64,000 bases of DNA from Dehalococcoidia bacterium (lineage in GTDB: Bacteria > Chloroflexota > Dehalococcoidia > GIF9 > UBA5629). Numbering within the stretch: the first letter of the stretch is position 1; each line of letters opens with the position of its first letter. Below the pieces are notes generated by a model. That model did not search any database, was not told the DNA's origin, and saw only the letters and a program-made list of their open reading frames with translations. Below are positions 36,921 to 60,068 of this stretch, in pieces. The DNA lies in the NCBI GenBank assembly GCA_041653995.1, contig JBAZEK010000001.1, positions 1,030,613 through 1,094,612 of the forward strand. The letters are read 5' to 3'. The position numbers and the translations under genes are program-made.

Positions 36921-37451
36921 ATGCAACAACAGTATCAATGCCCTAATTGTAGGTATCCAGTTGCTTATGGGAATAATTTCTGTGGACATTGTAGACAACA
37001 ACTAATCTGGCAACAATTAATGCCACCTTCACCACCAGTACACCATCAGCAAACACCACAAGGCATTATTGGGAAATCACACGAGCAAAACACTTCTGGA
37101 CAAGGTGGTCAATCAATAATACCCGATGAAAAGCGTATTAAACTTCCAAAACTCAATATTCGTTTCGACTTTGAGTTGTTTCAAGCAATTGAGGACAATG
37201 ACCGTAAACTGGCTGAACAGCTCAAAGCAAAATATGGGGATGATGTTTATAATTCCAATTTTTATAACCTGCTTAGTATCGAAGACGCTAACTCAGTAGA
37301 CTCACTTCATCTTAAACTAGTATCAGTTGAAAAAATGAATTTCAATGATATTTTATGCGAAAGTATCAAAATAGAGACTGAAAAAGTACGCAAAAGGATA
37401 GAGGAGCTTGAGAATATAAAAAATTTACGCAACGGGATTGAGGAAGTGTAA
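36921..37451 (+). CDS. zinc-ribbon (MQQQYQCPNC...CGHC) + coiled-coil protein
   Basis: 176 aa; N-terminal CPNC-x11-CGHC; member of the window-wide MQQxYxCPxC family. Confidence 0.55.
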   Translation: MQQQYQCPNCRYPVAYGNNFCGHCRQQLIWQQLMPPSPPVHHQQTPQGIIGKSHEQNTSGQGGQSIIPDEKRIKLPKLNIRFDFELFQAIEDNDRKLAEQLKAKYGDDVYNSNFYNLLSIEDANSVDSLHLKLVSVEKMNFNDILCESIKIETEKVRKRIEELENIKNLRNGIEEV

Positions 37452-39368: not shown

Positions 39369-39410
39369 ATAATTTCTTGATATTAAGAAATCGAGGTGTA
39401 CTGGTCTGAA

Positions 39411-40434: not shown

Positions 40435-40518
40435 ATAGAATACGGTCAATGTAGTGAGGCTGGGGAGATGAAATATTTACTTGCTTGTTTCATAGCACTA
40501 TTCGTTATATCAGCCTGC
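40435..40518 (+). repeat. second copy of 84-bp 5'UTR+signal-peptide module
   Basis: identical to 34527..34610. Confidence 0.8.
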
Positions 40519-41880
40519 ACACCAAATAACTCAATAAACAACGTTGAGACATTCCCAAAAATCGGAGATAAGATACCGAATATCTCATGGACTACTATCA
40601 ATGGCGAAAAGATTGATTTAAATCAGTTTAAAGGCAGTTGGGTGCTACTATGCTATTGGTGCTCTTGCCCTGTACATAGGAATGACATACTGACTATTCA
40701 TAATGTTTATGATTCATTATATGATAAGAATCTCGATGTCATTGTAATTAATGATACTTATGCTCAGATAGAATTAGAGGCATTTGGAAAACAAAACAAT
40801 GTACCGTTTTATTTAATTGAAGATAATCAAAAAACAATTGATAAACTTGTACCATTTGGCAACAGGCCAATATATCTCTTAATTGATGGGAGTGGGGATT
40901 TACATGCTATCGAAATAGGTACATTTCGCTCTGGCGAAAATAGCGTTAACAATGTAATCAATTTCCTTGATGATGTGATTAAGGTAAGAATCGATAATAT
41001 TACAGTCACTAATATTACTTCAAATAGGGCAACTGTGAGATGGAAAACAGATAAGGCAGTACCGTGTTGGTTGGAAATTCACCCCCAAGGTGACCCAATC
41101 GGAAAGTGCATCGGCAAGACAAATCCAAATACATTTCATGAATTGATATTAAACTGTAATCCCAACACAGCTTACACTTTTAACGTAGCTGCTAGTGGAT
41201 TAGATAATTCTTTAATTAACGATGCAAGCAATCGTAGTAGTGAATTTTCATTTCAAACATTACCAAATTGGGTTACTTCTTTATATGAGGTTGACTCTAC
41301 TAAACCAAAAATATCGAATGTTAAAGTTTCTATAATTACAGATACGAGTGCAGAGTTATATTGGGAAACTGATGTGGAAGCTCAAGTCACCGCTACAATC
41401 TGTAAATATATATCCAGTACTGATGCGCCCTTAAACTCCCAGAAAATTGATTTTATAGAAGACATATATTTTACAAAGAAACATAGCTTTACAATTAGCT
41501 CTCTTGAGCCAAGACGATTATATGACGTTGGTTTAAATGCCAAAGATAGAATGGGAAGGGTTGCCGATTACAGTGTCGAATTTTTAACACAACCTTCAAA
41601 TTATACTCACGGAGCGAAGATATCCAATATATCTTTATATGACATCACGGACAGGAGTGCTAAATTAAAATGGTCAACTGACAAGTCAGTATGGAGTTCA
41701 GCCTGCTATAAATATGAGTGCTCTTCTGGGGACATCAACACTGAGCATTCATATACACTATCCTATGGTCTGGAACCCGATACAGAATACTGGGTGCAAA
41801 TTCTAGCACATGGGGAATCGGTATCTGATGTATTCAACTTCAGAACATTAAAGACAACAGATAAGGTAGATATGAAATGA
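40468..41880 (+). CDS. exported lipoprotein: thioredoxin-fold domain (CYWCSC) + three fibronectin-III/purple-acid-phosphatase-N-like domains
   Basis: 470 aa; same signal peptide as 34559 gene; Fn3-like segments TNITSNRATVRWKTD, VSIITDTSAELYWETD, ISLYDITDRSAKLKWSTD. Confidence 0.7.
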   Translation: MKYLLACFIALFVISACTPNNSINNVETFPKIGDKIPNISWTTINGEKIDLNQFKGSWVLLCYWCSCPVHRNDILTIHNVYDSLYDKNLDVIVINDTYAQIELEAFGKQNNVPFYLIEDNQKTIDKLVPFGNRPIYLLIDGSGDLHAIEIGTFRSGENSVNNVINFLDDVIKVRIDNITVTNITSNRATVRWKTDKAVPCWLEIHPQGDPIGKCIGKTNPNTFHELILNCNPNTAYTFNVAASGLDNSLINDASNRSSEFSFQTLPNWVTSLYEVDSTKPKISNVKVSIITDTSAELYWETDVEAQVTATICKYISSTDAPLNSQKIDFIEDIYFTKKHSFTISSLEPRRLYDVGLNAKDRMGRVADYSVEFLTQPSNYTHGAKISNISLYDITDRSAKLKWSTDKSVWSSACYKYECSSGDINTEHSYTLSYGLEPDTEYWVQILAHGESVSDVFNFRTLKTTDKVDMK

Positions 41881-41907
41881 AAGAAAATCAAAAGGGAGGT
41901 AAAGAAG

Positions 41908-42084
41908 ATGGTAGCAAATAAGAAGAAGTATTATGCAGGGGAATCAGCTAAAGTCTCTGGCAAATACAACGAATGCAGATTGGGCACAGGCAAAACAGGA
42001 GTAACAGCAAATGTCAAGAAGGGGGATACACTCCCACCACATAAAATAGGAGCTCATTGGGAGTTATCAAGAAAATCTAAATAA
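41908..42084 (+). CDS. small basic protein (58 aa), hypothetical
   Basis: strong RBS AAGGGAGG 8 nt upstream; MVANKKKYYAGESAKVSGKYNECRLGTGKTG...; not in ORF track (<60 aa). Confidence 0.35.
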   Translation: MVANKKKYYAGESAKVSGKYNECRLGTGKTGVTANVKKGDTLPPHKIGAHWELSRKSK

Positions 42085-42316
42085 TATAGACATATTTAAG
42101 AAAGTGGTGACTTATAAAACTTCATGCTGTCCTGAAAGCTGAATGACCGAGTATATCTTTGCACCATAATAAAGTTCAGCCAAGGCACCGTTAAAATGTA
42201 CTACAGAATTGTTCTAAAGGGCCAAAATGGGGTATATAATATAGGGCATGACAGATTCTTCCTGCCTGAGCTTTTCAAGCTTAATTATTGAACAAATAAC
42301 TATGAAATCCTGATTG

Positions 42317-43081
42317 CTAACGAGGTAACTGATTTGAGCCGTTCACATCTTTGTAGACTTGAAGAGCATCCTCAAAGGATAAAGATTTTGAATACCTTTC
42401 AACCATAGAAATGCTTTCCCAACCGCCTAGATTTTGCACAATACGAGTGGATAACCCAGACTTAATATTGTGAATACAAAACCCTCTTCTATAGCTATGG
42501 GCGTTGGACTTAATGCCAGTTTCTTTAGACAATCGTTTAAGCATAGTTTTAATGCCAGCTCTTGATATTTCAAAACTATCATGCTCATCAAACCACTTTC
42601 CGATAACACCATTACCAGCTAAAGCCTTACGATACTTGTTACCCTTGCCCAGAATGGTTACTGTACCTTCACCCCAGTCAAAGTCTTTAGCGTGCACATT
42701 AGCACATTCACTCAGCCTTACTCCTGAGTACCATAAGAAACTAATTAATGCTCTATCACGTTCACAATGACAATGATTTATCAGAACTTCTAATTGTTCT
42801 TTTGATACCGCAGGCAATAGCTTCTTTTGAATTTTTGGGCTAGGAACTTTGTCAATAACCTTGTCGTGAATATAGCTATTGCTGTATAGCCATGAAATGA
42901 GAGTTTTGAGAGCTTGATAGAATCTTGCTTTGCCATTATGACAGGTAAGTGATTTTAGATAAGCATTAACTCCATCTGGACTTAGGGGATAACCAATAAA
43001 ATGAGTTAAAGTATATTCGTAAAATTCAATAGTTCGCTTACTACAACCATCGGGGCGAGAAGAAATAAACTTCTCCAACAA
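42317..43081 (-). CDS. tyrosine recombinase/phage-type integrase (compact XerC/D-like)
   Basis: 254 aa; N-terminal SAM-like domain, catalytic R...HSYRRGF...LGGW...Y (R-H-R-Y); adjacent to tRNA-Val target. Confidence 0.85.
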   Translation of the reverse strand: MLEKFISSRPDGCSKRTIEFYEYTLTHFIGYPLSPDGVNAYLKSLTCHNGKARFYQALKTLISWLYSNSYIHDKVIDKVPSPKIQKKLLPAVSKEQLEVLINHCHCERDRALISFLWYSGVRLSECANVHAKDFDWGEGTVTILGKGNKYRKALAGNGVIGKWFDEHDSFEISRAGIKTMLKRLSKETGIKSNAHSYRRGFCIHNIKSGLSTRIVQNLGGWESISMVERYSKSLSFEDALQVYKDVNGSNQLPR

Positions 43082-43143
43082 TTCTTTTGTGAACTTTTTG
43101 TAGCTAACTTGTGAATATTGTGAAATTGAGCTGTAGTTTTCTT

Positions 43144-43219
43144 TGGTGGGCGATACTGGATTTGAACCAGTGACCCCCTGTGTGTAAGACAGGTGCTCTA
43201 ACCGCTGAGCTAATCGCCC
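43144..43219 (-). tRNA. tRNA-Val (anticodon UAC); integration target
   Basis: rc GGGCGATTAGCTCAGCGGTTAGAGCACCTGTCTTACACACAGGGGGTCACTGGTTCAAATCCAGTATCGCCCACCA; encoded CCA. Confidence 0.9.
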
Positions 43220-43226
43220 TGGGGAG

Positions 43227-43302
43227 TGGCACGCCTGGTGGGGCTTGAACCCACGGCCTCAGCCTCCGCAGGGCTGCGCTCTATCCACTGAGCTACAGGC
43301 GC
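43227..43302 (-). tRNA. tRNA-Arg (anticodon GCG as read; G37)
   Basis: rc GCGCCTGTAGCTCAGTGGATAGAGCGCAGCCCTGCGGAGGCTGAGGCCGTGGGTTCAAGCCCCACCAGGCGTGCCA; anticodon stem CAGCC/GGCTG, loop CTGCGGA; G1·U72 wobble if ends are as drawn. Confidence 0.7.
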
Positions 43303-43308
43303 ATAAAA

Positions 43309-43395
43309 TGGTGCCGAAGGTGGGAGTTGAACCCACACATCCGTTACGGATACTACGCCCTGAACGTAGCGCGTCTGCCATTCCGCCACTTCGGC
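43309..43395 (-). tRNA. tRNA-Leu (anticodon CAG), long variable arm
   Basis: rc GCCGAAGTGGCGGAATGGCAGACGCGCTACGTTCAGGGCGTAGTATCCGTAACGGATGTGTGGGTTCAACTCCCACCTTCGGCACCA. Confidence 0.85.
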
Positions 43396-43397
43396 CC

Positions 43398-43470
43398 TGG
43401 GCAGCACAGGATTTGAACCTGTGACCCCTTGCGTGTGAAGCAAGTGCTCTAACCGCTGAGCTAGCCGCCC
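43398..43470 (-). tRNA. tRNA-Val (anticodon CAC), CCA not encoded
   Basis: rc GGGCGGCTAGCTCAGCGGTTAGAGCACTTGCTTCACACGCAAGGGGTCACAGGTTCAAATCCTGTGCTGCCCA followed by GG. Confidence 0.85.
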
Positions 43471-43481
43471 TCTAACGCTAT

Positions 43482-43511
43482 ATTTTATTCTTTAACAAGG
43501 TTTAAAAGCAA
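43482..43511 (-). promoter_or_regulatory. candidate sigma-70 promoter for the tRNA operon (TTGCTT-N18-TAAAAT)
   Basis: read on minus strand; -10 lies ~12 nt upstream of tRNA-Val(CAC) 5' end. Confidence 0.3.
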
Positions 43512-43605
43512 GGCGAACCGCCCCGTACAATCATAGTTCATCAGGATTTATAAGCCCGCGCTGTGGACATCCCTCTACTCCAATGCATATAATTCAACTA
43601 CACCC

Positions 43606-44448
43606 ATGTTATCTTTTAAGCCGCTTGAAGCCGGCCCATCATCGCTGCTGAGTGTCCTCATCCTGCTTGCCGTGCTGGCTGTGGCCTGTGCATCACCCCT
43701 GCCGTCGCAACCGACGCCGGGCGACGATAATTCTCAACCCACGGCTGAGCCGGCGCAGATACCGGCTGCTCCTCCACCGGAACCGGCTGAATCCGAGAAC
43801 GTCTCCACAACAGTTGCCACTCCGGGATCGCCCGTCCGGATAAAGCTTATCCACTACAGGGGCACGCTCAGCAGGATCGGTTGCTGCAATCCGGGACTTT
43901 ACGAGAGAGATGAATTCGTTGTCATCCAGAATGTCGGAGATACGTATGTCGATATCGTCGACTGGCGTCTGACCAATATTACCAGGGGCTATCCCACTTT
44001 CATATTCCCGTCGCACTTCCCCTGCGTCCCCTACGAGCTGCCGCCGCCGGACCCGACCGAGGAAATAATATCGACCGAAAGCTATTACTCCTTGACCAAG
44101 AACCCGGCGCAGTCCGAGATCTACAGGTTCACGACAAATCCCCAGCAGTCCAAACCGACCAATGTGCCCAACAGTGAAATAGACTGGGCTTCATGCACGC
44201 CGGTGGAACCGCTGGACGAGACGCCCATGCAGCCGATAGCGGGCGAACAGGGAGTGCCGCCGCAGTGCATCCTCTACCCCGGTCAAACGATACTGGTATT
44301 CACAGATGAAATTCACTGCCAGACCGGAGGCTTCTCCTTCAACTGGGGACTGGGCAATATCTGGAACAACGTGACCGCCGATACGGCCGCGCTGTATAAC
44401 GCCCGCGGCGAAGAGGTATCGCGCAGGAGCTACCTTGTCGGCAGATAG
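43606..44448 (+). CDS. lipoprotein with two lamin-tail-domain (LTD)-like segments
   Basis: 280 aa; signal + Pro-rich linker; EFVVIQNVGDTYVDIVDWRL resembles the LTD core motif (EYVElyN.GdtaVDLsGW.L). Confidence 0.5.
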   Translation: MLSFKPLEAGPSSLLSVLILLAVLAVACASPLPSQPTPGDDNSQPTAEPAQIPAAPPPEPAESENVSTTVATPGSPVRIKLIHYRGTLSRIGCCNPGLYERDEFVVIQNVGDTYVDIVDWRLTNITRGYPTFIFPSHFPCVPYELPPPDPTEEIISTESYYSLTKNPAQSEIYRFTTNPQQSKPTNVPNSEIDWASCTPVEPLDETPMQPIAGEQGVPPQCILYPGQTILVFTDEIHCQTGGFSFNWGLGNIWNNVTADTAALYNARGEEVSRRSYLVGR

Positions 44449-44586
44449 CGGCATGTTTTTCTCCCCGAATTATTAAGTTTATTGATTTATTTAATACCTG
44501 TGTATATAATCAAGAAAATGGTTAAACATAGTCCGCCGGAAATACGTTTTCTCTATGGATAGTTATGGATGTGATGGAGAGATGAA

Positions 44587-45612
44587 ATGCAGCAATGGAT
44601 AAGATGCACCAGATGCGGCGCCAATAATGCTCCCGGACAGAAATTCTGTAACGCATGCGGTACACCCCTGCCGACCGTCTGCCCCAATTGCGGAACCCCG
44701 GCAGGTCCCGGCAGCACTTTCTGCGCCAGGTGCGGCATGACATTCAGCGGTATGCCCCAGCAGACCGGATATTACCCTCCGCAGCAGCCGGGATATCCTC
44801 AGCAACCTGGCTATCCGCAGCAACCGGCATATCCGCAACAGCCGGGCTATCCTCAGCAACCGGGCTATCCTCAGCAACCGGGCTATCCGCAACAGCCGGG
44901 ATACCCGCAACAGCCTGGATATCCGCAGCAGCCCCCCGGCTACCCGCCTCAACAGACCGGCTATTATCCTCCGCAGCAGCCGGGTTATCCTCCACAGCCG
45001 GGATATCCGCAGCAACCGCCCGGTTATCCGCCGCAGCCGGGATATCCGCAACAGCCCGGCTATCCCCAGCAACCGGGATATCCGCCGGGCTATCCTCCGC
45101 AGCAGCCGCCACGCGGAGCGTATCCGCCGGGCGCAAGGCCACCCCAGCAAGGCGGCGGCAAAGGCATGCTCATATTGCTGCTGGTTGTTCTGATTGCCGG
45201 CCTGGCAGGCTTCGGTTACTGGGCTTACAGCCAGGGCTACCTCAAGGGCATACTTAACTTCGGCAGCGATAACACCACCACCTCCACAGGGAAACAGAAG
45301 GACACTGTGCCGCCCACCATCAGCGGCGTAGAAGTTAGCGCCAAGGCCATAAACGAAGTCGGCATTATCTGGAAGACGGACAAGCCATCCAGTTCTCAGG
45401 TGGAATGGGGTCCCAAGGGATCGTTCGGCAACAAGACGACACTACAGGATGACCCCGTGAGCGGTACCAGCATCGGTGTCACCGATCACGGGGTTATCGT
45501 CAAGGGATTAACGGCAAATACTGAATACCAGTACCGTGTGTTATCACATACCGACGGCAACGTTGACGCCGTATCCGCCACCAATACTTTCACGACACCT
45601 TCGGCAGATTAA
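44587..45612 (+). CDS. double zinc-ribbon – PQ-rich (PGYPQQ x ~20) – TM – Fn3-like domain protein
   Basis: 341 aa; [44 protein letters not shown]; [23 protein letters not shown]; C-terminal [17 protein letters not shown]...TEYQYRV purple-acid-phosphatase-N/Fn3-like. Confidence 0.65.
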
Positions 45613-45644
45613 CCCTCCTTTTCGCTGCGTTTACAGATTTTCTA

Positions 45645-46529
45645 ATGTATCAATCAACAGTACCCTGCCCTAAATGCGGCGCGCAGAACCTGCGGGGACA
45701 GTGGGTATGCGCGTACTGCGGAAATACGCTTGTCGTTTATTGTCCATCCTGCCATACCGGCAACGCCATCGACAGCCAGTATTGCCACGCCTGCCATGCA
45801 GTTCTCGCGTATACCGGCGTTCCGCCGGCTCAACCACAGTATCAACCCCAACCCCAGCAGCCTCAACCATATCCGCAGTACCCGCAATATCCTCCCGGGC
45901 AAACTGACCAGGGCCAGTACCCTCCGCAGTATCCACCCTACCCTCCACCCGGTTATCCACCACAGCAACCACCCTACCCGGACTACCAGGCCGGATACGG
46001 CCAGCCCGGCGATTATAAACCATACTCGGTTCACGGCGGCGAAGCCTACGCCGGAGGCGGGCTGGACGGCCTGATCGACAGGCTCAAAGAGTTCGTGCGC
46101 AATACCAATCCCATTCTCCTCTCTTCGCTGGTGGTGCTGGTAGTCGGTCTGACCATCTTCCTCATCCTGGCCTTCCAGTTCGGCTGGATCAAGACGGGTT
46201 CGGCGCCCAAAGTAGAAACAGTTAAAGATACCACAGCTCCTGTGATAACTTATTTAACTTATGAGCCCGGTGAAAATAGAAGCATTATAATAATTTGGGC
46301 AACCAATGAGCCAGCAAGTACGCGGGTCGAGTGGGGTATCGCACCTGTTTTCAACCAATTCACACTTATAGAAAACGATCCCCAAGTTGGCCAAGGTACA
46401 CTTTCACATAGGGTAACATTGACTAACCTGCTACCAAACACCAGCTATATTTACCGCGCAATATCATATGACAAAGCAGGGAACAAATGCATGAGTCCTA
46501 CTATGCCATTCCAAACTACGAACTACTAG
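45645..46529 (+). CDS. paralogous double zinc-ribbon – PQY-rich – TM – Fn3-like protein
   Basis: 294 aa; CPKCGAQNLRGQWVCAYCGNTLVVYCPSCHTGNAIDSQYCHAC; same architecture as upstream gene. Confidence 0.65.
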   Translation: MYQSTVPCPKCGAQNLRGQWVCAYCGNTLVVYCPSCHTGNAIDSQYCHACHAVLAYTGVPPAQPQYQPQPQQPQPYPQYPQYPPGQTDQGQYPPQYPPYPPPGYPPQQPPYPDYQAGYGQPGDYKPYSVHGGEAYAGGGLDGLIDRLKEFVRNTNPILLSSLVVLVVGLTIFLILAFQFGWIKTGSAPKVETVKDTTAPVITYLTYEPGENRSIIIIWATNEPASTRVEWGIAPVFNQFTLIENDPQVGQGTLSHRVTLTNLLPNTSYIYRAISYDKAGNKCMSPTMPFQTTNY

Positions 46530-46632
46530 TAGAAACGCACCCTGCCTCAAAGCCCGCGTAACATCCGACACCGATCATACATTGCTCCGGGCCCGCATTG
46601 GACATACAATATTAAGCATTTAAGGGATTATC

Positions 46633-46917
46633 ATGCAGCAAAACTTTCTCTGTCCCATCTGCTGGCAAGAAAATACGGCCGGCAGCACGGTGTGCAGCCA
46701 CTGCCACTCACAACTCGGCGTTCTGGGCGCCGTCAATTCCAATTGCCCCCATCCCGGCTGCCGATGGCCGCGCGTACCCTACGACCGCTTCTGCGGCAAC
46801 TGCGGAAGCCCTCTGCAACCCATCTGCCCTAACTGCGGCAACAACATCTCCAGGGACTCGAGATACTGCCCCAAATGCAGCTTTTTCTGCGGCGGGGGCC
46901 GGGAAGGATTAAAATAA
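46633..46917 (+). CDS. triple zinc-ribbon small protein (MQQNFLCPIC...)
   Basis: 94 aa with three CxxC-x(10-12)-CxxC pairs. Confidence 0.5.
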   Translation: MQQNFLCPICWQENTAGSTVCSHCHSQLGVLGAVNSNCPHPGCRWPRVPYDRFCGNCGSPLQPICPNCGNNISRDSRYCPKCSFFCGGGREGLK

Positions 46918-46942
46918 TCATATAGCACTGCTGGAGAAGTAT

Positions 46943-47263
46943 ATGGCTGATATCCTTGACGAAGCTCAATCGTTATTACAGTGCAAGACCTGCCCCTGGT
47001 ATAAGAACTGCGTCCTGCCTGTCCGCGTGACGGAGCTCGACCTGAAAAAGCAACTCGGCTCGAATATATCTTTCTCCACGCCTCCCGGCATGGAGGACCT
47101 GGGTCTCAACCAGTTGCTGGGGGGTCTGGCTTCAGCCGCCGAAAATTCGATGCTGGAAGGCTGCCCGGTTTTCATCGATAGACTGCGCTCCAATCCCAAT
47201 CTGGCCCTGCGCATTAAAAAGGTCATGCAGGAGTGGTCGGACGAAAGCGGCGACCAGCAATAG
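46943..47263 (+). CDS. hypothetical protein (106 aa)
   Basis: ORF with coding-like composition, stop 3 nt before xth start. Confidence 0.4.
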   Translation: MADILDEAQSLLQCKTCPWYKNCVLPVRVTELDLKKQLGSNISFSTPPGMEDLGLNQLLGGLASAAENSMLEGCPVFIDRLRSNPNLALRIKKVMQEWSDESGDQQ

Positions 47264-47266
47264 CTG

Positions 47267-48130
47267 ATGAGCGATCAGATCAAGCTTATCTCCTGGAACG
47301 TGGTCAGCATGCGAAACATGCTGGATAAGGCCAACCTGGCGCCGGACGGACAACCACATTTGCCCTTTCTCGACTGGTTGAAACGGGAATCGCCCGACGT
47401 TGTCTGTTTCCAGGAAACGAAGCTGCAGCAGTCCCAGCTCCCTCCCGCCCTCGAAAACCCGGCCGGCTACTTCACGCTCTGGAATTTCGCAGAGAAGAAG
47501 GGCTACAGCGGTGTGGCCACATTCAGCCGTAATAAGCCTCTTTCCCACAGCAGCGGGCTGGGGATAGAAAGGTTCGACAGCGAGGGCAGGGTGCTGATGA
47601 CCGAACACCCCGGATTCAAACTCTTCAACATCTATTTTCCCAAGGCCTATTCGCCAAAGGAGGTGGCCACAGCCCGCAAAGAGGGCGCAGGAAATGCCGA
47701 TAAAATGGCGGAACGGCTGCCCTTCAAGCTGGCCTTTTACGATGCGCTGCTGGAACACGTGGACCGATTATCGGAGCGGGGCGAAAAAATTGTTATCTGC
47801 GGCGACTTCAATGTAGCCCATACCGAGATAGACCTTGCCCGTCCCAGGGAAAACCGCGAGACCTCCGGATTCCTGCCCGAGGAACGCGCATGGATGGATA
47901 AGCTGATCGACCATGGGTACGTCGACACCTTCCGCCATATCTATAAGGACGCCGGGCATTACACCTGGTGGAGCTACCGCTTCAAAGCACGGGAAAAAGA
48001 TATCGGTTGGCGTCTCGACTATTTCTTTATCTCACGCAATCTGACCGAATCGCTGACCGGCGCATTCATCCTCAAAAACGTGCTGGGATCGGACCACTGC
48101 CCGGTGGGCATAACGTTGAAAATAGGCTGA
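47267..48130 (+). CDS. xth: exodeoxyribonuclease III (EEP-family AP endonuclease)
   Basis: 287 aa; KLISWNV, CFQETK, final SDHCPV motifs. Confidence 0.85.
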   Translation: MSDQIKLISWNVVSMRNMLDKANLAPDGQPHLPFLDWLKRESPDVVCFQETKLQQSQLPPALENPAGYFTLWNFAEKKGYSGVATFSRNKPLSHSSGLGIERFDSEGRVLMTEHPGFKLFNIYFPKAYSPKEVATARKEGAGNADKMAERLPFKLAFYDALLEHVDRLSERGEKIVICGDFNVAHTEIDLARPRENRETSGFLPEERAWMDKLIDHGYVDTFRHIYKDAGHYTWWSYRFKAREKDIGWRLDYFFISRNLTESLTGAFILKNVLGSDHCPVGITLKIG

Positions 48131-48153
48131 GCAGGCCTTAATATAAAGGGTAT

Positions 48154-48453
48154 ATGATCGACGCCCTGCACGAACTGAAAAACAATATAGCGCGCGTAGA
48201 GCAGAGCCATCCCCACCTGGGCAACGACCTTTCATCCACATGCGACAGGGCCATCACGGAACTGCAGGAGATCCACCGACGGCAGCGCATGGCCGGGACG
48301 AGGGATAGCGCTGAAGCCGCGCCGCGGACAACCGGGACCAATCCCCTTTCGCAGATGATCGATAAGACAGGCGCCTGTATCATAAGCGGACTGGACAGGA
48401 TGGGCGACGCCATCATATTTCTCTTCGTAAAGATCGGCAGGGTATTCAGTTAG
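48154..48453 (+). CDS. hypothetical protein (99 aa)
   Basis: ORF only. Confidence 0.3.
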   Translation: MIDALHELKNNIARVEQSHPHLGNDLSSTCDRAITELQEIHRRQRMAGTRDSAEAAPRTTGTNPLSQMIDKTGACIISGLDRMGDAIIFLFVKIGRVFS

Positions 48454-48498
48454 ACGCCTGATTTCAATACAAAGCGGCTTCTCTGTTAAGATATTTGC

Positions 48499-49443
48499 AT
48501 GAAAAAAACGCAGCGCATCGCTGTGATAGGCGCCGGCGCCGTGGGAAGCTATTACGGGGGACGTCTGGCCGAGGCCGGACATGATGTCCGATTCCTGGTC
48601 AGGCGTGATTACCATACCGTCAGGTCGTCCGGCCTGAATGTAACCAGTCCGGACGGGGATTTCCTGCTGGCACGTCCTTTTACAGCTGCAGACAGCACGG
48701 AGATAGGTACGGTGGACTGGGTGATCTGCGCGCTCAAGTCAACCTCCATTCATGCCGCACACAAGCTGGTCCAGCCCTGCGTGGGCGCCGACACCCGCAT
48801 ACTGGTGCTGATGAACGGCCTGGGATTGGAGGACCATTTCGCCGGGTGGTTCGGCCAAGAACGCATATTCGGAGGCCTGGCCTTTACCTGTATCAACAGA
48901 GGCAAGCCCGGTAACGTGCATCACCTGGCATACGGAACGGTTACACTGGGACACTACAAAAACGATCAAGGCGAGATCGACAAAGCCCTTGCGCTGTGGT
49001 CGGGCAGCAAAACCAGCGTTGTCTCAGCGTCCTCGCTTTTGAAGGCCCGCTGGGAGAAGCTTTGCTGGAATATACCTTTCAGCGGCCTGTGCGTGGCCGG
49101 CGGAGGTATCACGACCGACCGCATCATGGCGGACGAAGGACTGCGCGCCGCTGCAAAGGCATTGATGCAGGAAGTCATATGCGCGGGAAACGCCGACCTG
49201 GCATATCACGGCGAAAAATCCGACATCGACCGCAATACAATAATAAATAGTCTGTTTCAGAAGACTTCCACCATGGGAGCATATAAGCCGAGCACCATGA
49301 TCGATTTCGTGGAGGGCAAGGCTATGGAGGTCGACGCCATCTTCGCTGAGCCGCTACGGCGCGCCCGTGAACTCAAGGTCCCCACCCACCGCCTTGCGCT
49401 GCTTACAACCCTGCTGAGATCCCTCAACCACGGCCGGCAATAG
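48499..49443 (+). CDS. panE: 2-dehydropantoate 2-reductase (ketopantoate reductase, ApbA/PanE family)
   Basis: 314 aa; IAVIGAGAVGSYYGGRLAEAGHDV Rossmann N-terminus and ApbA C-terminal domain. Confidence 0.8.
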   Translation: MKKTQRIAVIGAGAVGSYYGGRLAEAGHDVRFLVRRDYHTVRSSGLNVTSPDGDFLLARPFTAADSTEIGTVDWVICALKSTSIHAAHKLVQPCVGADTRILVLMNGLGLEDHFAGWFGQERIFGGLAFTCINRGKPGNVHHLAYGTVTLGHYKNDQGEIDKALALWSGSKTSVVSASSLLKARWEKLCWNIPFSGLCVAGGGITTDRIMADEGLRAAAKALMQEVICAGNADLAYHGEKSDIDRNTIINSLFQKTSTMGAYKPSTMIDFVEGKAMEVDAIFAEPLRRARELKVPTHRLALLTTLLRSLNHGRQ

Positions 49444-49455
49444 GGCCCGAGGCCG

Positions 49456-49866
49456 CTACGGTACCGTTATGCCCGATTCCCCTGAGATAGGCACGTATCT
49501 GAATGGACCGCTGTAATCCAGACCCTCCATGCCCATTTTAATATCGTTTACATCCCATATCGAGCTGATGATCCAGACCACCGCCACCTGTTTGCTGGCG
49601 GTAAGCTTTATTAGTATGGGGGCGAAGTCCTTTGTTCCCTGTTTATAGTACTCGATGGGGCCTATCTCGTAACCCTCAGCGACGGATCGCTGCTTCATCG
49701 CGGCCAGCGAGCTCCTTCCGGTCTCATTATCGAGGACCAGGAAAGAGGCATAACTTTTGGATGGATCATAGGTGAAGCCCTGTTCCGGCAACAACGAACA
49801 TGCAAGACACGGCAACGCAAGCAGGACGAGAGCCGCCAGGGTAGCAAGAAGCAGTTTCAGACGCAT
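49456..49866 (-). CDS. small lipoprotein, hypothetical
   Basis: internal ATG 49866 gives MRLKLLLATLAALVLLALPCLACS signal/lipobox; the longer 232-aa ORF upstream lacks support. Confidence 0.4.
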   Translation of the reverse strand: MRLKLLLATLAALVLLALPCLACSLLPEQGFTYDPSKSYASFLVLDNETGRSSLAAMKQRSVAEGYEIGPIEYYKQGTKDFAPILIKLTASKQVAVVWIISSIWDVNDIKMGMEGLDYSGPFRYVPISGESGITVP

Positions 49867-49950
49867 CTTTTTAATTTCCTTACCGGTATTCCGTATATTA
49901 TACAAAATGGCAGGCCTGGACGCCCAATTCGATGTATAATCGTCAGTAAT

Positions 49951-50160
49951 ATGAAAAGGGTCTACCACAACGATAAAATAACGGTTTTCTGGGATTCGGA
50001 GAAGTGTATACATTCCGGCAACTGCTTCTCCAACCTGCCCGAGGTTTTTAAACCGATGAGGCGTCCCTGGGTGGATATCAATGCCGCCGAAGCGGCGACT
50101 ATTAAAAGCGCCATAGACAAATGCCCATCGGGCGCGCTTACCTGTGAACTGCATAAATAG
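49951..50160 (+). CDS. small ferredoxin-like (divergent 4Fe-4S mono-cluster-type) protein
   Basis: 69 aa; KITVFWDSEKCIHSGNC ... CPSGAL Cys pattern. Confidence 0.3.
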   Translation: MKRVYHNDKITVFWDSEKCIHSGNCFSNLPEVFKPMRRPWVDINAAEAATIKSAIDKCPSGALTCELHK

Positions 50161-50252
50161 CGGGTGACTGTCGTTAGGGACATTGGGGGCATGACTAAAT
50201 ACCTATTGATACCGGAATATCTGCTGTTATAATAAGCAGTTGGAGGTGATCT

Positions 50253-50900
50253 ATGGGAATCCAGAATGCGGGACAGGTGCTCGGTGTCGTATGCCTGGGT
50301 CTGGCATCCCTGGCAGCATTTCTCATGGTGCCGGCGCGCGAACTGAGCATACGGGAGAGGATCGGCATACATACGTTTTACTGGGCTTTTGCCGTCTACG
50401 CAGCCTGGACCATATTCTTCATGTCGGCAGACCAGGGCTGGGAAAGATATTTTTATACCTGCATACCGTTGATGCTGGGATTGATCCTCAGCCTGTTGTC
50501 CGAGCTGCAGTCCAAACAGCCGCCCATCAATATAAACGATGCCCGTCTCAAAAAGATCGCCGTCCGGACGTGGCAAAGGCTGCCTAATCACGTGAAAAGA
50601 GGGCTGCAGAGCACCGTCATGAATATACAGGAGGTCCCGGAGTGGGACGAGCTGGACGAGGAATATTCCAGGGATTCCACGGCCAGGGCAGCGCGCTGGT
50701 ATACCATCCTGCCCCTGCCGACCAGAGGTATAATACACGTATCGGAAAGCGACTGCCGAAACCTGCAGGACCAGGCTGTAGCGGCAGCCCTGGCACGCGA
50801 GTTAGGCATGGCATATCAATCCACCAAAACCCCCTTCGACAGCAACGCCATCGAAAAAGCCGGCGACGAGCTGCCTGTTAAATGGAAGTTCACTAAATAG
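50253..50900 (+). CDS. hypothetical membrane protein
   Basis: 215 aa; 3-4 N-terminal TM helices. Confidence 0.4.
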   Translation: MGIQNAGQVLGVVCLGLASLAAFLMVPARELSIRERIGIHTFYWAFAVYAAWTIFFMSADQGWERYFYTCIPLMLGLILSLLSELQSKQPPININDARLKKIAVRTWQRLPNHVKRGLQSTVMNIQEVPEWDELDEEYSRDSTARAARWYTILPLPTRGIIHVSESDCRNLQDQAVAAALARELGMAYQSTKTPFDSNAIEKAGDELPVKWKFTK

Positions 50901-50990
50901 GTCCGGCCTGTTGCATTCGTCTCATATCAACCGTATCATGGTGACGGTTCACTATCTATGCCCGCGGGGAACTGAGGAGGAGAACAGTAT

Positions 50991-52187
50991 ATGCTGAGCA
51001 AAAGCAGGACCTCTGTCAGGGCCGTCGATGTCGACGATGTGCTTTCCGAGTGGCGTTCCAGGGCGGTCACGGTTTTAACTTACGTGGTTCTGATAGTGGC
51101 GCTGCCGGCATTTGCGATTTCAGCGTTCTCCATGTACGCGTCAAAATCCTGGGCCGCGTTTGTCGTGATGAGCGCGGCTTACCTGGGGATGATCGCGCTT
51201 GCCTTATTAAAAAAGATCGATTTCAGGTTGCGGGCCTGGGTGCTGATCACACTGGGCTATATGATGGCCGCGGTCAATTTATGGTATTTCGGGTCCGCGG
51301 GTTCCGCGCGCGTTTATCTCCTGGCATTACCCATTTTGGGATTCATTCTAATCGGTACGCGCACCGGATGGGTCACCACCGCCTTCAGCGCCCTGCTCTA
51401 CGCTGTTTTCTGCCTTCTTGACTATTACGCAATCCTCTCGCCCCGCTTATTGCCTCTCGATAGATTTGATTTGTTGAACTGGGTTACGACTGGTTTTACT
51501 ATGATGATGCTGCTGGTTATCATCGTGATCCTGCTGATACGCATGTACCGTTTCCTGATCAACACCCTGAGGAAAGAGCGTGTCCTTTCGGCCGAGCTGG
51601 AACAGACCTACGACGCGACTCTGGAGGGCTGGGCTACTGCACTGGAATATCGCGACCTTGAAACGGCCGGACACTGTCACCGCGTCAGCGCAATAACCAA
51701 AAGGCTGGCGGAGGCCGACGGCACGGGAGCGCTCGATATAATGGACGTCCATCGCGGCTCCCTTCTGCACGACGTCGGCAAAATGGGCATACCGGACAGC
51801 GTCCTGCTCAAGCCGGGCAAGCTCACCGATGAGGAATTCAAGCAGATGCAGCAGCATACAACCTATGCGTATGAACTGTTGTCCCATATACCCTATCTCA
51901 AACATGCGCTGGATATACCTTACTGCCACCACGAGAAATGGGATGGCAGCGGCTATCCGCGCGGGTTGAAGGGCACGGATATCCCCCTTTCGGCCCGCAT
52001 CTTCTCGGTGGTCGACGTCTACGATGCCCTCATCTCGGACCGCCCATACCGCAAAGCCTGGCAGGAAGAGAAGGCGATCGAATATATAAAAGAGAGATCG
52101 GGCAAAGATTTCGACCCGGCCGTGGTCCAGGCGTTTGTAAAGCTGGCCGAAGAGGAAACCGATTCGCTTTCCAGCAGCGAAGAATGA
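50991..52187 (+). CDS. membrane-anchored HD-GYP domain c-di-GMP phosphodiesterase
   Basis: 398 aa; ~6 TM helices then HDVGKMGIP...HHEKWDGSGYPRGL. Confidence 0.85.
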   Translation: MLSKSRTSVRAVDVDDVLSEWRSRAVTVLTYVVLIVALPAFAISAFSMYASKSWAAFVVMSAAYLGMIALALLKKIDFRLRAWVLITLGYMMAAVNLWYFGSAGSARVYLLALPILGFILIGTRTGWVTTAFSALLYAVFCLLDYYAILSPRLLPLDRFDLLNWVTTGFTMMMLLVIIVILLIRMYRFLINTLRKERVLSAELEQTYDATLEGWATALEYRDLETAGHCHRVSAITKRLAEADGTGALDIMDVHRGSLLHDVGKMGIPDSVLLKPGKLTDEEFKQMQQHTTYAYELLSHIPYLKHALDIPYCHHEKWDGSGYPRGLKGTDIPLSARIFSVVDVYDALISDRPYRKAWQEEKAIEYIKERSGKDFDPAVVQAFVKLAEEETDSLSSSEE

Positions 52188-55453: not shown

Positions 55454-55651
55454 ATGCTGAAGAATTTGTACTGCCCCAGGTGCATGGCGCGGGTTATGTG
55501 CGGTGAGAGATTCTGTGGGAATTGCGGTGCAAACCTTGTATGGGCGGTGCGGCCGGCACAGTCAGGTGTGCCTGTGACGCCCATCAGCAAGGATATCTCC
55601 AGATTACTGGCAGACTTCGAGAAGCATATTAAATACAGCCATTCCAACTGA
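55454..55651 (+). CDS. small zinc-ribbon protein
   Basis: 65 aa; CPRC-x10-CGNC. Confidence 0.4.
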   Translation: MLKNLYCPRCMARVMCGERFCGNCGANLVWAVRPAQSGVPVTPISKDISRLLADFEKHIKYSHSN

Positions 55652-56281: not shown

Positions 56282-57880
56282 TCACGGGGTTACGCTCACG
56301 GTGACCGTGGCGTTATCAGTCCCGTAGCTGTTGATGGCGGTCAAGGTAAAGCTGGTGGTTTCAGCCGGCGATACAGCCTGCGTGTATTTCGAGGCTGGAA
56401 CGCCGATGCCCTGGTCAATAATGTATAAAGTAGCGCCATTCACATTCCAGGAAAGGTTGGATGTCCCGCCCTGAGAAATGCCGGTAGGCGTGGCCGTGAA
56501 AGATCTTATTATCGGCGCAGTGCCGTCGGTTAAAACGCCTACCGCAACCGTGACTTCCTTCTTTACGGAGCCGAACGTGTTGACCGCGGTCAGCTCATAA
56601 GTGGTGGAAGCGGTCGGTATCACCTTCGTCCAGCCGGAAGACGGTACGCTGCCGACATTCGGGCTGATAGAGACTGTCCTGGCCGCATCGACCGTCCAAT
56701 TGAGTGTCACCTCCTCCCCCAGCATGATCGAATTGTTGCTTACGGAGAAGGTTTTAATCCGGGGCGGGTCTTTGGTCAGCGCCGGACCGGTGCTCAGGCT
56801 GGAAGCATCCACGCTGATAGTGACCGTCCTGGTTACCGAGCCGTAGTCGCTGTCGGCCCTCAATGTATATACTGCGGTCTCGGAGGGCGTTATTCTGACC
56901 GTACCCTTTAAGGCCACGCCGCCGATGCCCGGACTGATATTAATCGATTTCGCGCCGATGATATCCCATGCCAGCGTCGCTTCGTCGCCGGCTTTAATCG
57001 AGGACGGGCTGGCGCTGAAGATCGTGATGATGGGCGTCTTGGATGTGCTTACCTCCAGCGCGGCTGAAGCGGTTGTATTGCCGTTGATATTGGCCGCCGT
57101 CAGCACATAGCGGGTGGTCGCTCCCGGGGAAACGACTTTCGATCCGGTCGAAGATACGGTTCCCACCTCCGGCTGGATGGAAACCGATGTTGCGCCGGAG
57201 ACGTTCCAGGATAAAGTGGACGTCTGCCCCACATAGATACCGCCAGGGCTGGCAACAAAGCTGTTGACCGTCGGCGGCTTGCCGGTGACCTCAACGGTTA
57301 TCTCCCTGCTCACAGAGCCGCCGAAACGGCTATCGGCGGTCAGCTTATAGGTAGTGGTTTCATCCGGCGACATTTTCTTTGTTCCGCTGAAAGACACCGT
57401 CCCTATGCCGGGGCTGATGGAGACGGCGGTTGCCTCGCCGACATCCCACTGTAAAGTCACCTCCTGGCCGGATATAATCGTAGATGAACTGGCCTCGAAA
57501 GCTGTAATAACCGGCGGCGCAAACAGTTTTTCAATATCTCCCTTCAAAGCAACGCCCGTGACGATAAGCGCTGTAACAACAAGCAAGGCAGAGGCTATAG
57601 CAATAGTCTTTGTCCGGTTATCTTTTATCCGCTGCAGCAGTTTCGATACGACGCTATTATTCGGCGGTTGTTCCTGTCCCTGCGAATCCTGACCCGCCCA
57701 TTGATTACCTTCCTGCGACTGATACCATTGCTGCTGCTGATCATGCCGGGAATCGTATGACTGGGACTGGCCCTGCGTCTGGGATCCCTGCCAGTTGAGG
57801 ACGGTTTTGCAGTATGAGCACTGCGCCTGTCCGTAGACGACAGGTGTGTTGCAGTAGGGGCAGTAATACATTTGCTGCAT
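56282..57880 (-). CDS. zinc-ribbon (MQQMYYCPYC) – TM – Ig-like-repeat surface protein
   Basis: 532 aa; five ~95-aa repeats with TLxWxVxGAxSVSIxPGIGTVSxSGxxxVxPxxTTxYxLTA consensus. Confidence 0.7.
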   Translation of the reverse strand: MQQMYYCPYCNTPVVYGQAQCSYCKTVLNWQGSQTQGQSQSYDSRHDQQQQWYQSQEGNQWAGQDSQGQEQPPNNSVVSKLLQRIKDNRTKTIAIASALLVVTALIVTGVALKGDIEKLFAPPVITAFEASSSTIISGQEVTLQWDVGEATAVSISPGIGTVSFSGTKKMSPDETTTYKLTADSRFGGSVSREITVEVTGKPPTVNSFVASPGGIYVGQTSTLSWNVSGATSVSIQPEVGTVSSTGSKVVSPGATTRYVLTAANINGNTTASAALEVSTSKTPIITIFSASPSSIKAGDEATLAWDIIGAKSINISPGIGGVALKGTVRITPSETAVYTLRADSDYGSVTRTVTISVDASSLSTGPALTKDPPRIKTFSVSNNSIMLGEEVTLNWTVDAARTVSISPNVGSVPSSGWTKVIPTASTTYELTAVNTFGSVKKEVTVAVGVLTDGTAPIIRSFTATPTGISQGGTSNLSWNVNGATLYIIDQGIGVPASKYTQAVSPAETTSFTLTAINSYGTDNATVTVSVTP

Positions 57881-58106: not shown

Positions 58107-60068
58107 ATGCAGCAAATGTACTCTTGTCCAAACTGTAGAGCGCTTATTCAGTATGGACAGCCGTATTGCAGCAACTGCGGTATGACCTTTAATTGGCCTC
58201 CTCCACAACCGCCTCCTTACCCATACCCCAACCAGCAATATATGTACGGCAATCAGGGGGCTATGCCGCCCGGGAAAAGCTCGATGGGCGGTTTTGTCTG
58301 GTTTATTGTGATATTGCTGATCGTCGGCGGAGCGATCGGCGGCTTCTATTACGCTACGAACGGAGATGTCTTGAAATGGTTCACCCCACCCTCCGTAACA
58401 TCCTTCGACGCCAGTCCCAAGTCCATCACGTCGGGAGGGACGGCAACATTAAACTGGGCCGTCATGGGGGCTCAATCGGTCTCCATCAGCCCCGACATCG
58501 GGACCGTGTCATCCAGCGGTTCGCAGGCTGTGAATCCTGATAAAACGACCGAGTACACACTGACCGCCTCCAATTTATCCGGCTCCTCCCGCGCCTGGGC
58601 CACCGTTACAGTTACAGCTCCGAGCAAGCCGGCCATCAGCAGCTTCAGTTCCAATCCGGGCACTATCACCGCCGGGCAGTCGGCCACATTATCATGGAAT
58701 GTTACGGGGGCAACCTCGGTTTCCATCAGTCCCGCTGTCGGCAACGTATCATCGAGCGGCTCAAAGACAGTGACACCCACCGAGACAACCAGCTACACGA
58801 TCACCGCCGTCAACGACGCCGGCTCGTCTACAACAACAGCCAAAGTTACGGTGAATCCGTCCGGACCACCGACGATCGCCAGTTTTACAGCCAGCCCGGC
58901 CTCTATCACCTCAGGCGGGAGTTCGACGCTGTCCTGGACCGTCAGCGGCGCAACCTCTGTTACCATTAACCAGGGTGTGGGCACAGTATCGACTTCCGGA
59001 ACCAGGTCGGTATCGCCCTCCACCACAACCACCTACACCCTTACAGCCGGCAACAGCCTGGGCAGCTCCACCGCGACGGCCGCTGTCACGGTCACGGCGG
59101 CAGGCATACCCGTCATAACCATATTCACCGCCAGCCCGTCGCCGATTACCGCAGGGGACAATATGACACTGTCGTGGACCGTAACGGGGGCGACAACGAT
59201 CAATATCTTGCCAGGTGTCGGAACAGTATCGGCAACAGGAACGCGCACTCTGATCCCCGCTGCGACCACCACCTATACGCTAACCGCCACCAACACTAAC
59301 GGCCCGGCGACCGCGACAGCGACGGTGACGGTGGCTTCGGAAGGCCCACCGGTAATCAGCTCGTTTTACCCATCTCCCGTCACCGTTACCTCCGGATCGT
59401 CTTCGACACTGCACTGGACTGTTGCGGATGCGACGGAGGTATCCATTACCCCCGGCATCGGCGTCGTATCTGCCACCGGATTAGAGACGGTAACGCCTTT
59501 ATCCACAACCACCTATGTATTAACCGCCTTTAACAGCCACGGCACAATCACGGCGACGACCGCTGTCACAGTGGCCCCGGCAGGCTATCCCGCGATCAGC
59601 TTCTTCAATGCCGTCCCGGCCTCGGTCGCGTCGGGACAATCGACAACGTTATCATGGACCGTCACTGGGGCGAGCACGGTCTCCATCAACCAGGGCATAG
59701 GCGCCGTTTCGGCCTCGGGTTCCAGGACAATAACTCCCGCCGCCACCACCACATACACAATTACCGCAACCAACGGCTCCGGCTCTGTTGCTGCTTCAGC
59801 TACGGTAACCGTAACGACAACCTCAGGTACGCCTCCGGTAATAGATTCTTTCGGAGCTTCGCCCACTACCATCTCGCCCGGAGGATCATCGCTGCTGAAC
59901 TGGTCCATAACGGGAGCAACTTCCATCTCAATCGAACCCGATATAGGCGAGCCATCATCGTGGGGCTATCAGGACGTATATCCCACGGAGACCACGACTT
60001 ATACCCTGACCGCCTTCAACAGCGCGGGTTCGGATACAGCCACAGTGACCGTGACGGTAACTCCCTGA
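58107..60068 (+). CDS. zinc-ribbon (MQQMYSCPNC) – TM – Ig-like-repeat (x7) surface protein
   Basis: 653 aa; same architecture, divergently transcribed from 56282..57880. Confidence 0.7.
   Translation: MQQMYSCPNCRALIQYGQPYCSNCGMTFNWPPPQPPPYPYPNQQYMYGNQGAMPPGKSSMGGFVWFIVILLIVGGAIGGFYYATNGDVLKWFTPPSVTSFDASPKSITSGGTATLNWAVMGAQSVSISPDIGTVSSSGSQAVNPDKTTEYTLTASNLSGSSRAWATVTVTAPSKPAISSFSSNPGTITAGQSATLSWNVTGATSVSISPAVGNVSSSGSKTVTPTETTSYTITAVNDAGSSTTTAKVTVNPSGPPTIASFTASPASITSGGSSTLSWTVSGATSVTINQGVGTVSTSGTRSVSPSTTTTYTLTAGNSLGSSTATAAVTVTAAGIPVITIFTASPSPITAGDNMTLSWTVTGATTINILPGVGTVSATGTRTLIPAATTTYTLTATNTNGPATATATVTVASEGPPVISSFYPSPVTVTSGSSSTLHWTVADATEVSITPGIGVVSATGLETVTPLSTTTYVLTAFNSHGTITATTAVTVAPAGYPAISFFNAVPASVASGQSTTLSWTVTGASTVSINQGIGAVSASGSRTITPAATTTYTITATNGSGSVAASATVTVTTTSGTPPVIDSFGASPTTISPGGSSLLNWSITGATSISIEPDIGEPSSWGYQDVYPTETTTYTLTAFNSAGSDTATVTVTVTP

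Follow-up and report, generated by a model that had tools for sequence, protein, structure and literature searches.

Within a 64,000-nucleotide stretch of Dehalococcoidia DNA (hereafter 'the window', to whose first letter all positions refer), three consecutive plus-strand genes, which we call A, B and C, form what synteny indicates to be one conserved operon of an uncultured Dehalococcoidia clade. A and B each join a double zinc ribbon at the extreme N-terminus to a long tract rich in Pro, Gln, Tyr and Gly (P/Q/Y/G), a single transmembrane (TM) helix and a fibronectin type III (Fn3)-like ectodomain; C is a small, soluble protein built from three zinc ribbons. What is new relative to the literature is the fixed A-B-C operon, the long and conserved P/Q/Y/G tether and a pattern of selection that points inwards; the general layout, with a (double) zinc ribbon at the N-terminus ahead of a TM helix and an ectodomain, is already known, and proteins resembling B and C sit in databases under generic names. 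A literature search found no description of the A-B-C module. Our preferred, if tentative, reading is that A-B-C is a membrane-anchored module for binding or tethering on the cytoplasmic side: it is favoured by the combination of strongly constrained cytoplasm-facing parts, a co-encoded soluble three-ribbon protein and a disordered tract.

Architecture and synteny of A, B and C

Reading A (44587..45612; 341 amino acids (aa)) from its N-terminus, we see a double zinc ribbon (residues 1–50; 44587..44736) with the spacing CxxC-x10-CxxC at residues 7 and 32, then the low-complexity repeat tract or candidate tether (51–189; 44737..45153), a TM segment (190–216; 45154..45234) and an Fn3 / Pur_ac_phosph_N-like ectodomain (252–337; 45340..45597; Pfam PF16656, E 1.3e-9). 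B (45645..46529; 294 aa) is a paralog with the same architecture by Pfam, hydropathy and homology: a double zinc ribbon (residues 1–51; 45645..45797; Pfam and Cys spacing), a disordered P/Q/Y-rich linker (52–139; 45798..46061), a juxtamembrane helix (140–153) running into a TM helix (156–178; together 46062..46178) and an Fn3 beta-sandwich (201–290; 46245..46514; PF16656). In both proteins the TM helix, at 190–216 in A and 156–178 in B, is the single hydrophobic helix detected by hydropathy. C (46633..46917; 94 aa) carries its three ribbons and a conserved C-terminal RYCPKCSFFCGGGRE, as seen by Pfam, hydropathy and an AlphaFold2 (AF2) model.

At Pfam's curated cut-offs (27.3 bits for DZR, PF12773; 25 for Zn_Ribbon_1, PF13240; 30 for Pur_ac_phosph_N, PF16656), all three proteins are recognised as DZR (A 45.3, B 29.7 and C 53.7 bits) and as Zn_Ribbon_1 (46.7, 30.8 and 33.6 bits, respectively), and the ectodomains of A and B as Pur_ac_phosph_N (38.9 and 37.3 bits). 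The paralogy of A and B is detected in the ribbon regions and the Fn3 regions alike. Together with hydropathy and the structural model of B, these data confirm the description in the initial annotation of A and B as tandem paralogs, each with a double zinc ribbon, a repeat tract, one TM helix and an Fn3-like domain.

The AF2 model of B, calculated on a 45-sequence alignment, has structured ribbons (residues 1–55; predicted local distance difference test (pLDDT) scores of 76–87), a disordered stretch at residues 59–139 (pLDDT <50) and a confidently predicted beta-sandwich at 201–290 (pLDDT >90), the helices quoted above being taken from its secondary structure. In a Foldseek search of the PDB the sandwich resembles Fn3 domains and the N-domain of purple acid phosphatase 3zk4 (E about 1e-4); a PDB sequence search matched the ribbons to DZANK1, and only weakly. 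Many alignment positions in the juxtamembrane/TM region of B are nearly invariant, and an AGLxGFGYWA stretch in the TM segment of A is invariant in five orthologs. A homolog search with B gave 74 clusters; the protein is 100% identical to one from an NCBI metagenome-assembled genome (MAG), where it is named 'fibronectin type III domain-containing protein'. Homologs of C fall into 21 clusters, every one of them a standalone protein of 90–94 aa; its model shows three ribbons at a mean pLDDT of 77, and a fold search with this model gave no significant match, single ribbons resembling RanBP2/NZF-type fingers only at E >1.

The ectodomains of A and B also belong to a type seen in far larger proteins: a profile built from them matches giants of 0.6–7.3 thousand aa that carry 6–30 tandem Fn3 copies of the purple-acid-phosphatase N-domain (PAP-N) type. 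In a profile search over 1.84 billion representatives these giant multi-Fn3 proteins dominated, leaving one full-length relative in the top 150, so that the taxonomic range of the A/B architecture is not defined by that search.

Loci for comparison were drawn from contigs encoding B homologs, from a scan of GTDB species representatives and from a metagenome scan. Across these, the gene order LTD-A-B-C-(p106)-xth recurs at 24 loci of species-level MAGs (Dehalococcoidia or Chloroflexota) and at about 30 loci from metagenomes, with 20–44 nt between A and B and 2–103 nt between B and C; C follows B in essentially all loci, and A is full-length and in frame in 42. This fixed order across species marks A-B-C as an old, conserved three-gene module rather than a recent expansion. 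In this analysis the families came solely from MAGs of Dehalococcoidia or Chloroflexi; the 'lineage-specific' half of the expansion proposed initially is therefore supported, and the 'expansion' half is not, since A, B and C are separate orthologous groups in at least 24 species.

Conservation within the module is uneven. Over the 19 loci carrying A, B and C, with the window as reference, mean identity is 84% (A) and 73% (B) for the ribbons, 69% for the juxtamembrane and TM region of B and 76% for C; for the ectodomains it is 60% (A) and 48% (B). Across the 42 A orthologs, identity to the window spans 74–98% in the ribbons, 59–100% in the TM segment and 37–94% after it. The strongest constraint is thus on the predicted cytoplasmic side, with the ectodomains the least conserved parts.

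Of the flanking genes, the one upstream (43606..44448, plus strand) encodes a lamin-tail-domain (LTD) protein with an N-terminal hydrophobic leader (Pfam LTD, 47.6 bits) and is syntenic in 23 of the 24 genome loci. The module is invariably followed downstream by xth (47267..48130, plus strand), encoding exodeoxyribonuclease III (NCBIfam TIGR00633, 279.8 bits). In about 60% of loci a further gene, p106 (46943..47263, plus strand), intervenes between C and xth; in the window it ends 3 nt short of xth. Its 106-aa product has four Cys (C14, C17, C23 and C74), is 79–92% identical across relatives and had no match in Pfam, NCBIfam or PDB searches. Ahead of A we find a terminator-like hairpin 3' of the LTD gene (44436–44453), then a promoter-like site, TTGATT-17-TATAAT (44482..44510, plus strand; 10 of 12 consensus positions), both identified by consensus matching only, and then a GGAGAG ribosome-binding site, read directly from the sequence (44575–44580).

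A systematic annotation error, in which A is truncated or called on the wrong strand and C is skipped, leaves the module largely invisible in public annotations. One Logan contig (L001) is 100% identical to window positions 43463–52529, and the public gene call on it cuts A to 148 aa and places no gene at C; calls elsewhere (e.g. L004, L006 and L007) give an A of ~145–150 aa, or an opposite-strand open reading frame (ORF) across the repeat. An exact-sequence look-up of A accordingly returned no match because gene callers truncate the gene, not because it is absent, and the same truncated or omitted calls explain why the exact A and C proteins are missing from the protein collection. The plus-strand reading of A is secured by its 42 full-length orthologs, in all of which the indels of the tract are in frame. 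We rejected the minus-strand ORF at 44563–45150 as a gene; it is an artefact generated by the repeat, and the plus frame joins two conserved domains in all 42 orthologs.

The P/Q/Y/G tract

The tract of A is 138 aa long, with P, Q, G or Y at 128 of these residues, and Tandem Repeats Finder (TRF) describes the underlying DNA as about 16 copies of an 18-bp unit with 71% match (44778–45085). At the nucleotide level the repeat is degenerate: the ten identical PGYPQQ units are written in nine different 18-mers, and exact DNA repeats reach 29 bp at most. Across the 42 orthologs the tract ranges from 96 to 147 aa with a P/Q/Y/G fraction of at least 0.83, and every indel is in frame; composition and length range are kept, and the register is not. 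The corresponding linkers of B orthologs are 81–123 aa long, with a P/Q/Y/G fraction of 0.51–0.71. Because the indels are in frame and identical hexapeptides are encoded by different 18-mers, tract composition and length appear to be under selection at the level of the protein, and the DNA does not look like a slippage-prone contingency repeat.

The contrary view, that the repeat is a contingency locus subject to phase or length variation, can be set aside as highly improbable. It draws on the TRF repeat count and on a tract length that varies from 113 to 142 aa among close relatives whose ectodomains are at least 82% identical; however, the unit is a multiple of three nucleotides, the copies match at 71% only, with no exact repeat beyond 29 bp, nine 18-mers serve for ten identical hexapeptides and the frame is kept in 42 of 42 orthologs, where contingency loci would have near-perfect short repeats that shift frame or expression. 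The variation in PQ-tract length suggested initially is thus real between related species (96–147 aa), but phase variation is not what such degenerate, in-frame DNA indicates.

Tracts resembling PGYPQQ are also present in many unrelated membrane proteins of other organisms, both single- and multi-pass, where they occupy the N-terminal and presumably cytoplasmic tail (metagenome loci L072–L108); this suggests a generic juxtamembrane low-complexity module, and metagenome matches resting on the PGYPQQ tract alone were set aside as compositional.

Topology, proposed role and alternatives

The most plausible topology for A and B places the N-terminus inside the cell and the C-terminus outside. Eight zinc-ligand Cys lie on the N-terminal side of the TM helix and 0–1 outside, neither protein has a signal peptide, 150–190 hydrophilic residues precede the sole TM helix, and the Fn3 domain is of the type that recurs in giant surface-like proteins. 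Saying this, the charge bias across the TM helix is weak (net charge +1.6 versus +0.9 for A; +1.75 versus +1.5 for B), so that the N-in assignment depends on indirect arguments; the cytoplasmic ribbon of the initial annotation is retained with that qualification. The bias is clear for a further zinc-ribbon protein of the window, F (described below), which has three Lys+Arg in the N-terminal flank (five counting an adjacent RTK) versus one in the C-terminal flank.

In the arrangement we envisage, A and B would each cross the membrane once, N-terminus inside, their compact cytoplasmic double ribbons forming 'heads' linked to the membrane by a disordered, P/Q/Y/G-rich tether of ~90–145 residues, with one small Fn3 domain per protein lying ~25 residues beyond the membrane; C would be a soluble, cytoplasmic three-zinc-ribbon protein. 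As a flexible spacer, the tract could give the heads a reach of tens of nanometres into the cytoplasm, where they would bind a partner; this could be a protein, possibly C or one encoded elsewhere, and is less likely to be nucleic acid. The TM helices, perhaps as an A/B pair, would together with the Fn3 'feet' hold the complex in the envelope and might also position it there. That A, B and C form a complex, that the ribbons bind and that the tract tethers is what we infer from the features above. Should the ribbons indeed be partner-binding heads on such tethers, the operon would mark a conserved element linking the cell interior to the envelope in a class that is large, environmentally important and uncultured, and whose cell-envelope and division biology is, to our knowledge, poorly known. 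A-B-C also provides a well-defined, testable example among the widespread bitopic proteins that begin with a zinc ribbon.

Beyond the weak charge bias, several points weigh against a tether module. P/Q/Y/G tracts are present in the N-terminal tails of numerous unrelated membrane proteins, so that of A and B may be a generic spacer with no specific role. The CxxC-x10-CxxC ribbons are of a generic type for which nucleic-acid binding is also possible, any binding partner for them is putative only, and the fold search with C offered no significant match. The constant neighbourhood of xth could, in addition, hint at a role related to DNA.

A different proposal, which we consider unlikely though deserving of weight, is that A and B are one-component transmembrane signalling proteins, tethered nucleic-acid binders in the manner of ToxR or CadC, whose Fn3 domain senses and whose ribbons bind DNA or RNA, either whilst tethered or after release, with C modulating A and B. 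Such a function was proposed by Coggill & Bateman for the YARHG proteins, in which a double zinc ribbon at the N-terminus precedes a TM helix and an extracellular YARHG domain (PMC3355149), and zinc ribbons are often nucleic-acid binders (PMC3581485). A head on a long flexible linker could reach the nucleoid, the module is packed against xth, and double zinc ribbons prefix signalling enzymes of other bacteria, as seen here in weak NCBIfam matches of the N-terminal ribbons to models for a Ser/Thr phosphatase and for the '4-Cys prefix' of kinases. The ribbon regions are, however, only mildly basic (about +4 in A and about +1 in B, counted from the sequences with Zn-thiolate charge excluded), and neither a regulated target gene nor a protease is evident in the conserved neighbourhood. 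A lone Fn3 domain lacking a pocket-forming partner would be an unusual sensor, and the joint retention of two paralogs and a soluble ribbon protein suits a structural complex better. Pfam found no winged-helix domain in A or B, the similarity to ToxR and CadC being one of overall layout alone. As a separate candidate, a zinc-binding anti-sigma factor (ZAS, zf-HC2), for which an HxxxCxxC domain and a neighbouring ECF sigma gene would be expected, was rejected: there is no zf-HC2 match, nor a sigma-factor gene in the window neighbourhood or the syntenic loci.

Somewhat less probable again is that A and B are structural proteins of the cell surface or an S-layer, the zinc ribbon serving only as a cytoplasmic plug that folds fast, sets the N-in orientation and holds a variable ectodomain in place. 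The weak charge bias fits this, since a folded N-terminal domain could then determine topology; the Fn3 type of A and B is repeated 6–30 times in giant surface-like proteins, the constant upstream neighbour of the module encodes an extracellular LTD protein, and two further zinc-ribbon proteins of the window (F and G) carry 5–7 external Ig-like repeats and lie among surface-protein genes. Against it, a plug needs neither two ribbons at 74–98% identity, nor a tract of at least 96 aa, nor a soluble C, all of which outconserve the ectodomain, and a lone Fn3 domain of 90 aa with a ~25-residue stalk is not large enough to make a surface layer. Three of the window's zinc-ribbon proteins (C, D and E) have no membrane anchor, and the Pfam scan found no SLH or other S-layer anchoring domain. 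Ribbons so much more conserved than the ectodomains are a poor fit with a purely surface role, such as the S-layer or cell-surface function that the initial annotation had put forward as one possibility.

Several known systems can be compared with A and B. Bioinformatic work published in 2012 described a layout of N-terminal zinc ribbon, TM helix and ectodomain in monoderm bacteria (Coggill & Bateman, PMC3355149), and A and B resemble these zinc-ribbon/YARHG proteins in their N-terminal ribbon families (PF12773, PF13240 and PF13248), single central TM helix, small extracellular domain and monoderm setting; they differ in having an ectodomain of the PAP-N-type Fn3 kind and an inserted P/Q/Y/G tether of 90–145 aa, and in that two paralogs and a soluble three-ribbon protein are held here in a fixed operon. 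That an N-terminal ribbon can act as a protein-binding head has been shown experimentally for GltJ of Myxococcus xanthus, a bitopic protein whose cytoplasmic zinc ribbon, carried on a flexible linker, binds MglB (PMC11135422), and for ZitP of Caulobacter crescentus, whose ribbon binds PopZ according to work cited in the same source (PMC11135422). Bitopic layout, N-terminal ribbon and flexible linker are common to GltJ, ZitP and the A/B pair. The former, though, have a single ribbon of the spacing CxxC-x19-CxxC (PMC11135422), versus x10 in all seven zinc-ribbon ORFs of the window, reside in diderm hosts and have other ectodomains, GltJ also carrying a GYF domain; and no zinc_ribbon_4/5-type Pfam match was found for A or B at E values up to 0.1.

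Two further systems bear on the tether itself. ZipA of Escherichia coli uses an unstructured, P/Q-rich and flexible tether of ~100 residues between its membrane anchor and a globular cytoplasmic binding domain (PMC6904479). This disordered P/Q-rich tether is all that it has in common with A and B. The order in ZipA is reversed, running from a TM helix at the N-terminus through a charged domain and the P/Q domain to an FtsZ-binding domain at the C-terminus; ZipA lacks an ectodomain, Pfam finds no ZipA domain in A or B, and the sequences are unrelated. CdpC of Haloferax volcanii anchors FtsZ1 to the membrane by means of zinc ribbons with a disordered linker of 243 aa between them (bioRxiv 10.64898/2026.07.16.738847). 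Here too the ribbons are conserved and the remainder evolves fast, with one end at the membrane and the other on a cytoplasmic partner; CdpC is, however, archaeal, uses an amphipathic helix instead of a TM helix and has no ectodomain, the likeness being one of description rather than demonstrated homology. GltJ, ZitP, ZipA and CdpC may thus serve as precedents for the logic of a tether, none of them being a homolog.

On this analogy, A-B-C might serve these monoderm Dehalococcoidia as a hitherto unrecognised anchor that holds a cytoplasmic polymer or machine at the membrane, candidates being FtsZ, some other element of the cytoskeleton and the nucleoid, and so be a functional analogue of ZipA and CdpC, the two bitopic proteins and C, as a soluble adaptor, coupling the inside of the cell to the envelope through the Fn3 feet; we regard this more specific role as a long shot. 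A last comparison is with TcaA of Staphylococcus aureus, which combines a zinc ribbon at its N-terminus with one TM helix and a large extracellular domain. Compared by description, it differs from A and B in having one ribbon, no known P/Q/Y/G tract and an unrelated ectodomain. TcaA is itself named a zinc-ribbon-domain-containing protein (PMC10611510).

Other zinc-ribbon ORFs and genomic surroundings

Four further ORFs of the window begin with a zinc-ribbon pattern, and the initial annotation had grouped them with A, B and C as a seven-member 'MQQxYxCPxC' family of zinc-ribbon-anchored surface proteins. D (55454..55651, plus strand; 65 aa) starts MLKNLYCPRC and has a single ribbon and no TM helix; E (36921..37451, plus strand; 176 aa) is a soluble single-ribbon protein; F (56282..57880; 532 aa) has a single ribbon, a Q-rich linker, a TM helix and about five Ig-like repeats; and G (58107..60068, plus strand; 653 aa) has a single ribbon, a P-rich linker, a TM helix and about 6–7 Ig-like repeats, its PDB sequence search returning titin-like Ig matches. 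All seven ORFs are present, F being on the minus strand, which had not been stated. An extreme N-terminal ribbon, one TM helix and a folded C-terminal domain are found in A, B, F and G; hydropathy gives no TM segment for C, D or E, which are therefore not zinc-ribbon-anchored surface proteins.

The spacing C-x2-C-x10-C-x2-C from residue 7 or 8 is found in seven ORFs of the window versus none in 100 block shuffles. D, E, F and G nevertheless fall below the Pfam zinc-ribbon cut-offs (DZR scores of 20.5 bits for D and 19.9 for E; Zn_ribbon_3 at 21.7 bits for G against a cut-off of 27; F matching Zn_ribbon_DZR_6 only, at 14.2 bits), and we accordingly describe them, with their four-Cys pattern, as zinc-ribbon-like and outside these Pfam models. 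NCBIfam contains no family for A–G, the LTD protein or p106.

That all seven arose by recent, lineage-specific expansion of one paralog family is contradicted by the data and can be given very little credence. In its favour are the common Cys spacing and an MQQ start in five of the seven; in fact, the MQQ start is not random, these five (44587, 46633, 36921, 58107 and, on the minus strand, 57880) being the only ones among the 271 ORFs of at least 60 aa, and all of them zinc-ribbon ORFs. The literal MQQxYxCPxC motif is, though, confined to E, F and G, and outside the Cys the N-termini are 14–30% identical between groups and 36–43% within E/F/G; similarity is thus largely limited to generic CxxC spacing between groups, with E/F/G going beyond it. 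An all-against-all BLASTP supports only A/B and F/G (E 5e-76) as true paralog pairs, together with similarity of the N-terminus of E to those of F and G. Each group, moreover, has its own N-terminal consensus across dozens of other genomes: MYQsTiPCPkCGaQNLRGqWVCAhCG for B, MQqNFLCPnCwkEN for C, MQQmYsCPnCrapVaYGQp.C.NC..vlnW (including YGQ...NW) for F/G, and one containing +FCNACG for A. With A, B and C also orthologous across at least 24 species each, the 'seven-member family' resolves, at the level of sequence, into four or five separate families that have a generic zinc-ribbon fold in common; of the original grouping, the Cys spacing stands for all seven.

MQQ or MQK is kept in orthologs elsewhere, e.g. 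in 52 of 71 N-termini of the F family, which has more than 500 homologs. F and G are divergently transcribed and lie, with D, in a second cluster of envelope genes (55454–61465). This also includes two minus-strand genes: one (55752–56180) for a protein of 142 aa that combines a TM helix with a coiled coil and a Pro-rich tail, the other (60380–61465) for a secreted protein of 361 aa that has a related repeat as well as a QPSQPGQPQQ tract. Orthologs of D were found at loci L009 and L010, and the arrangement of D, the 142-aa protein, F and G is kept in a close relative (L109).

E lies inside a low-GC island of ~12 kb (31095–43219), with 35% GC versus 54% in the flanks. The island is bounded by a 51-bp exact direct repeat corresponding to the 3' half of tRNA-Val(TAC), and a tyrosine integrase (42317–43081, minus strand) adjoins the intact tRNA. 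It also contains a Rep-like gene (32529–33026), a Cas4/PD-(D/E)XK nuclease (33166–33858) and three large AhpC/TSA-redoxin fusions: one with a beta-propeller (34508–36502), one with two redoxin domains (37512–39368) and one joining a redoxin to Fn3/PAP-N (40468–41880). By its gene content and borders the island looks like an integrated mobile element with an unusual redoxin cargo. The housekeeping genes in the vicinity (HtrA, KatG, Xth, PanE and a DsrK-like protein) are bacterial, and between the island and the LTD gene are four tightly spaced, minus-strand tRNA genes (43144–43470): Val-TAC, Arg-GCG, Leu-CAG and Val-CAC.

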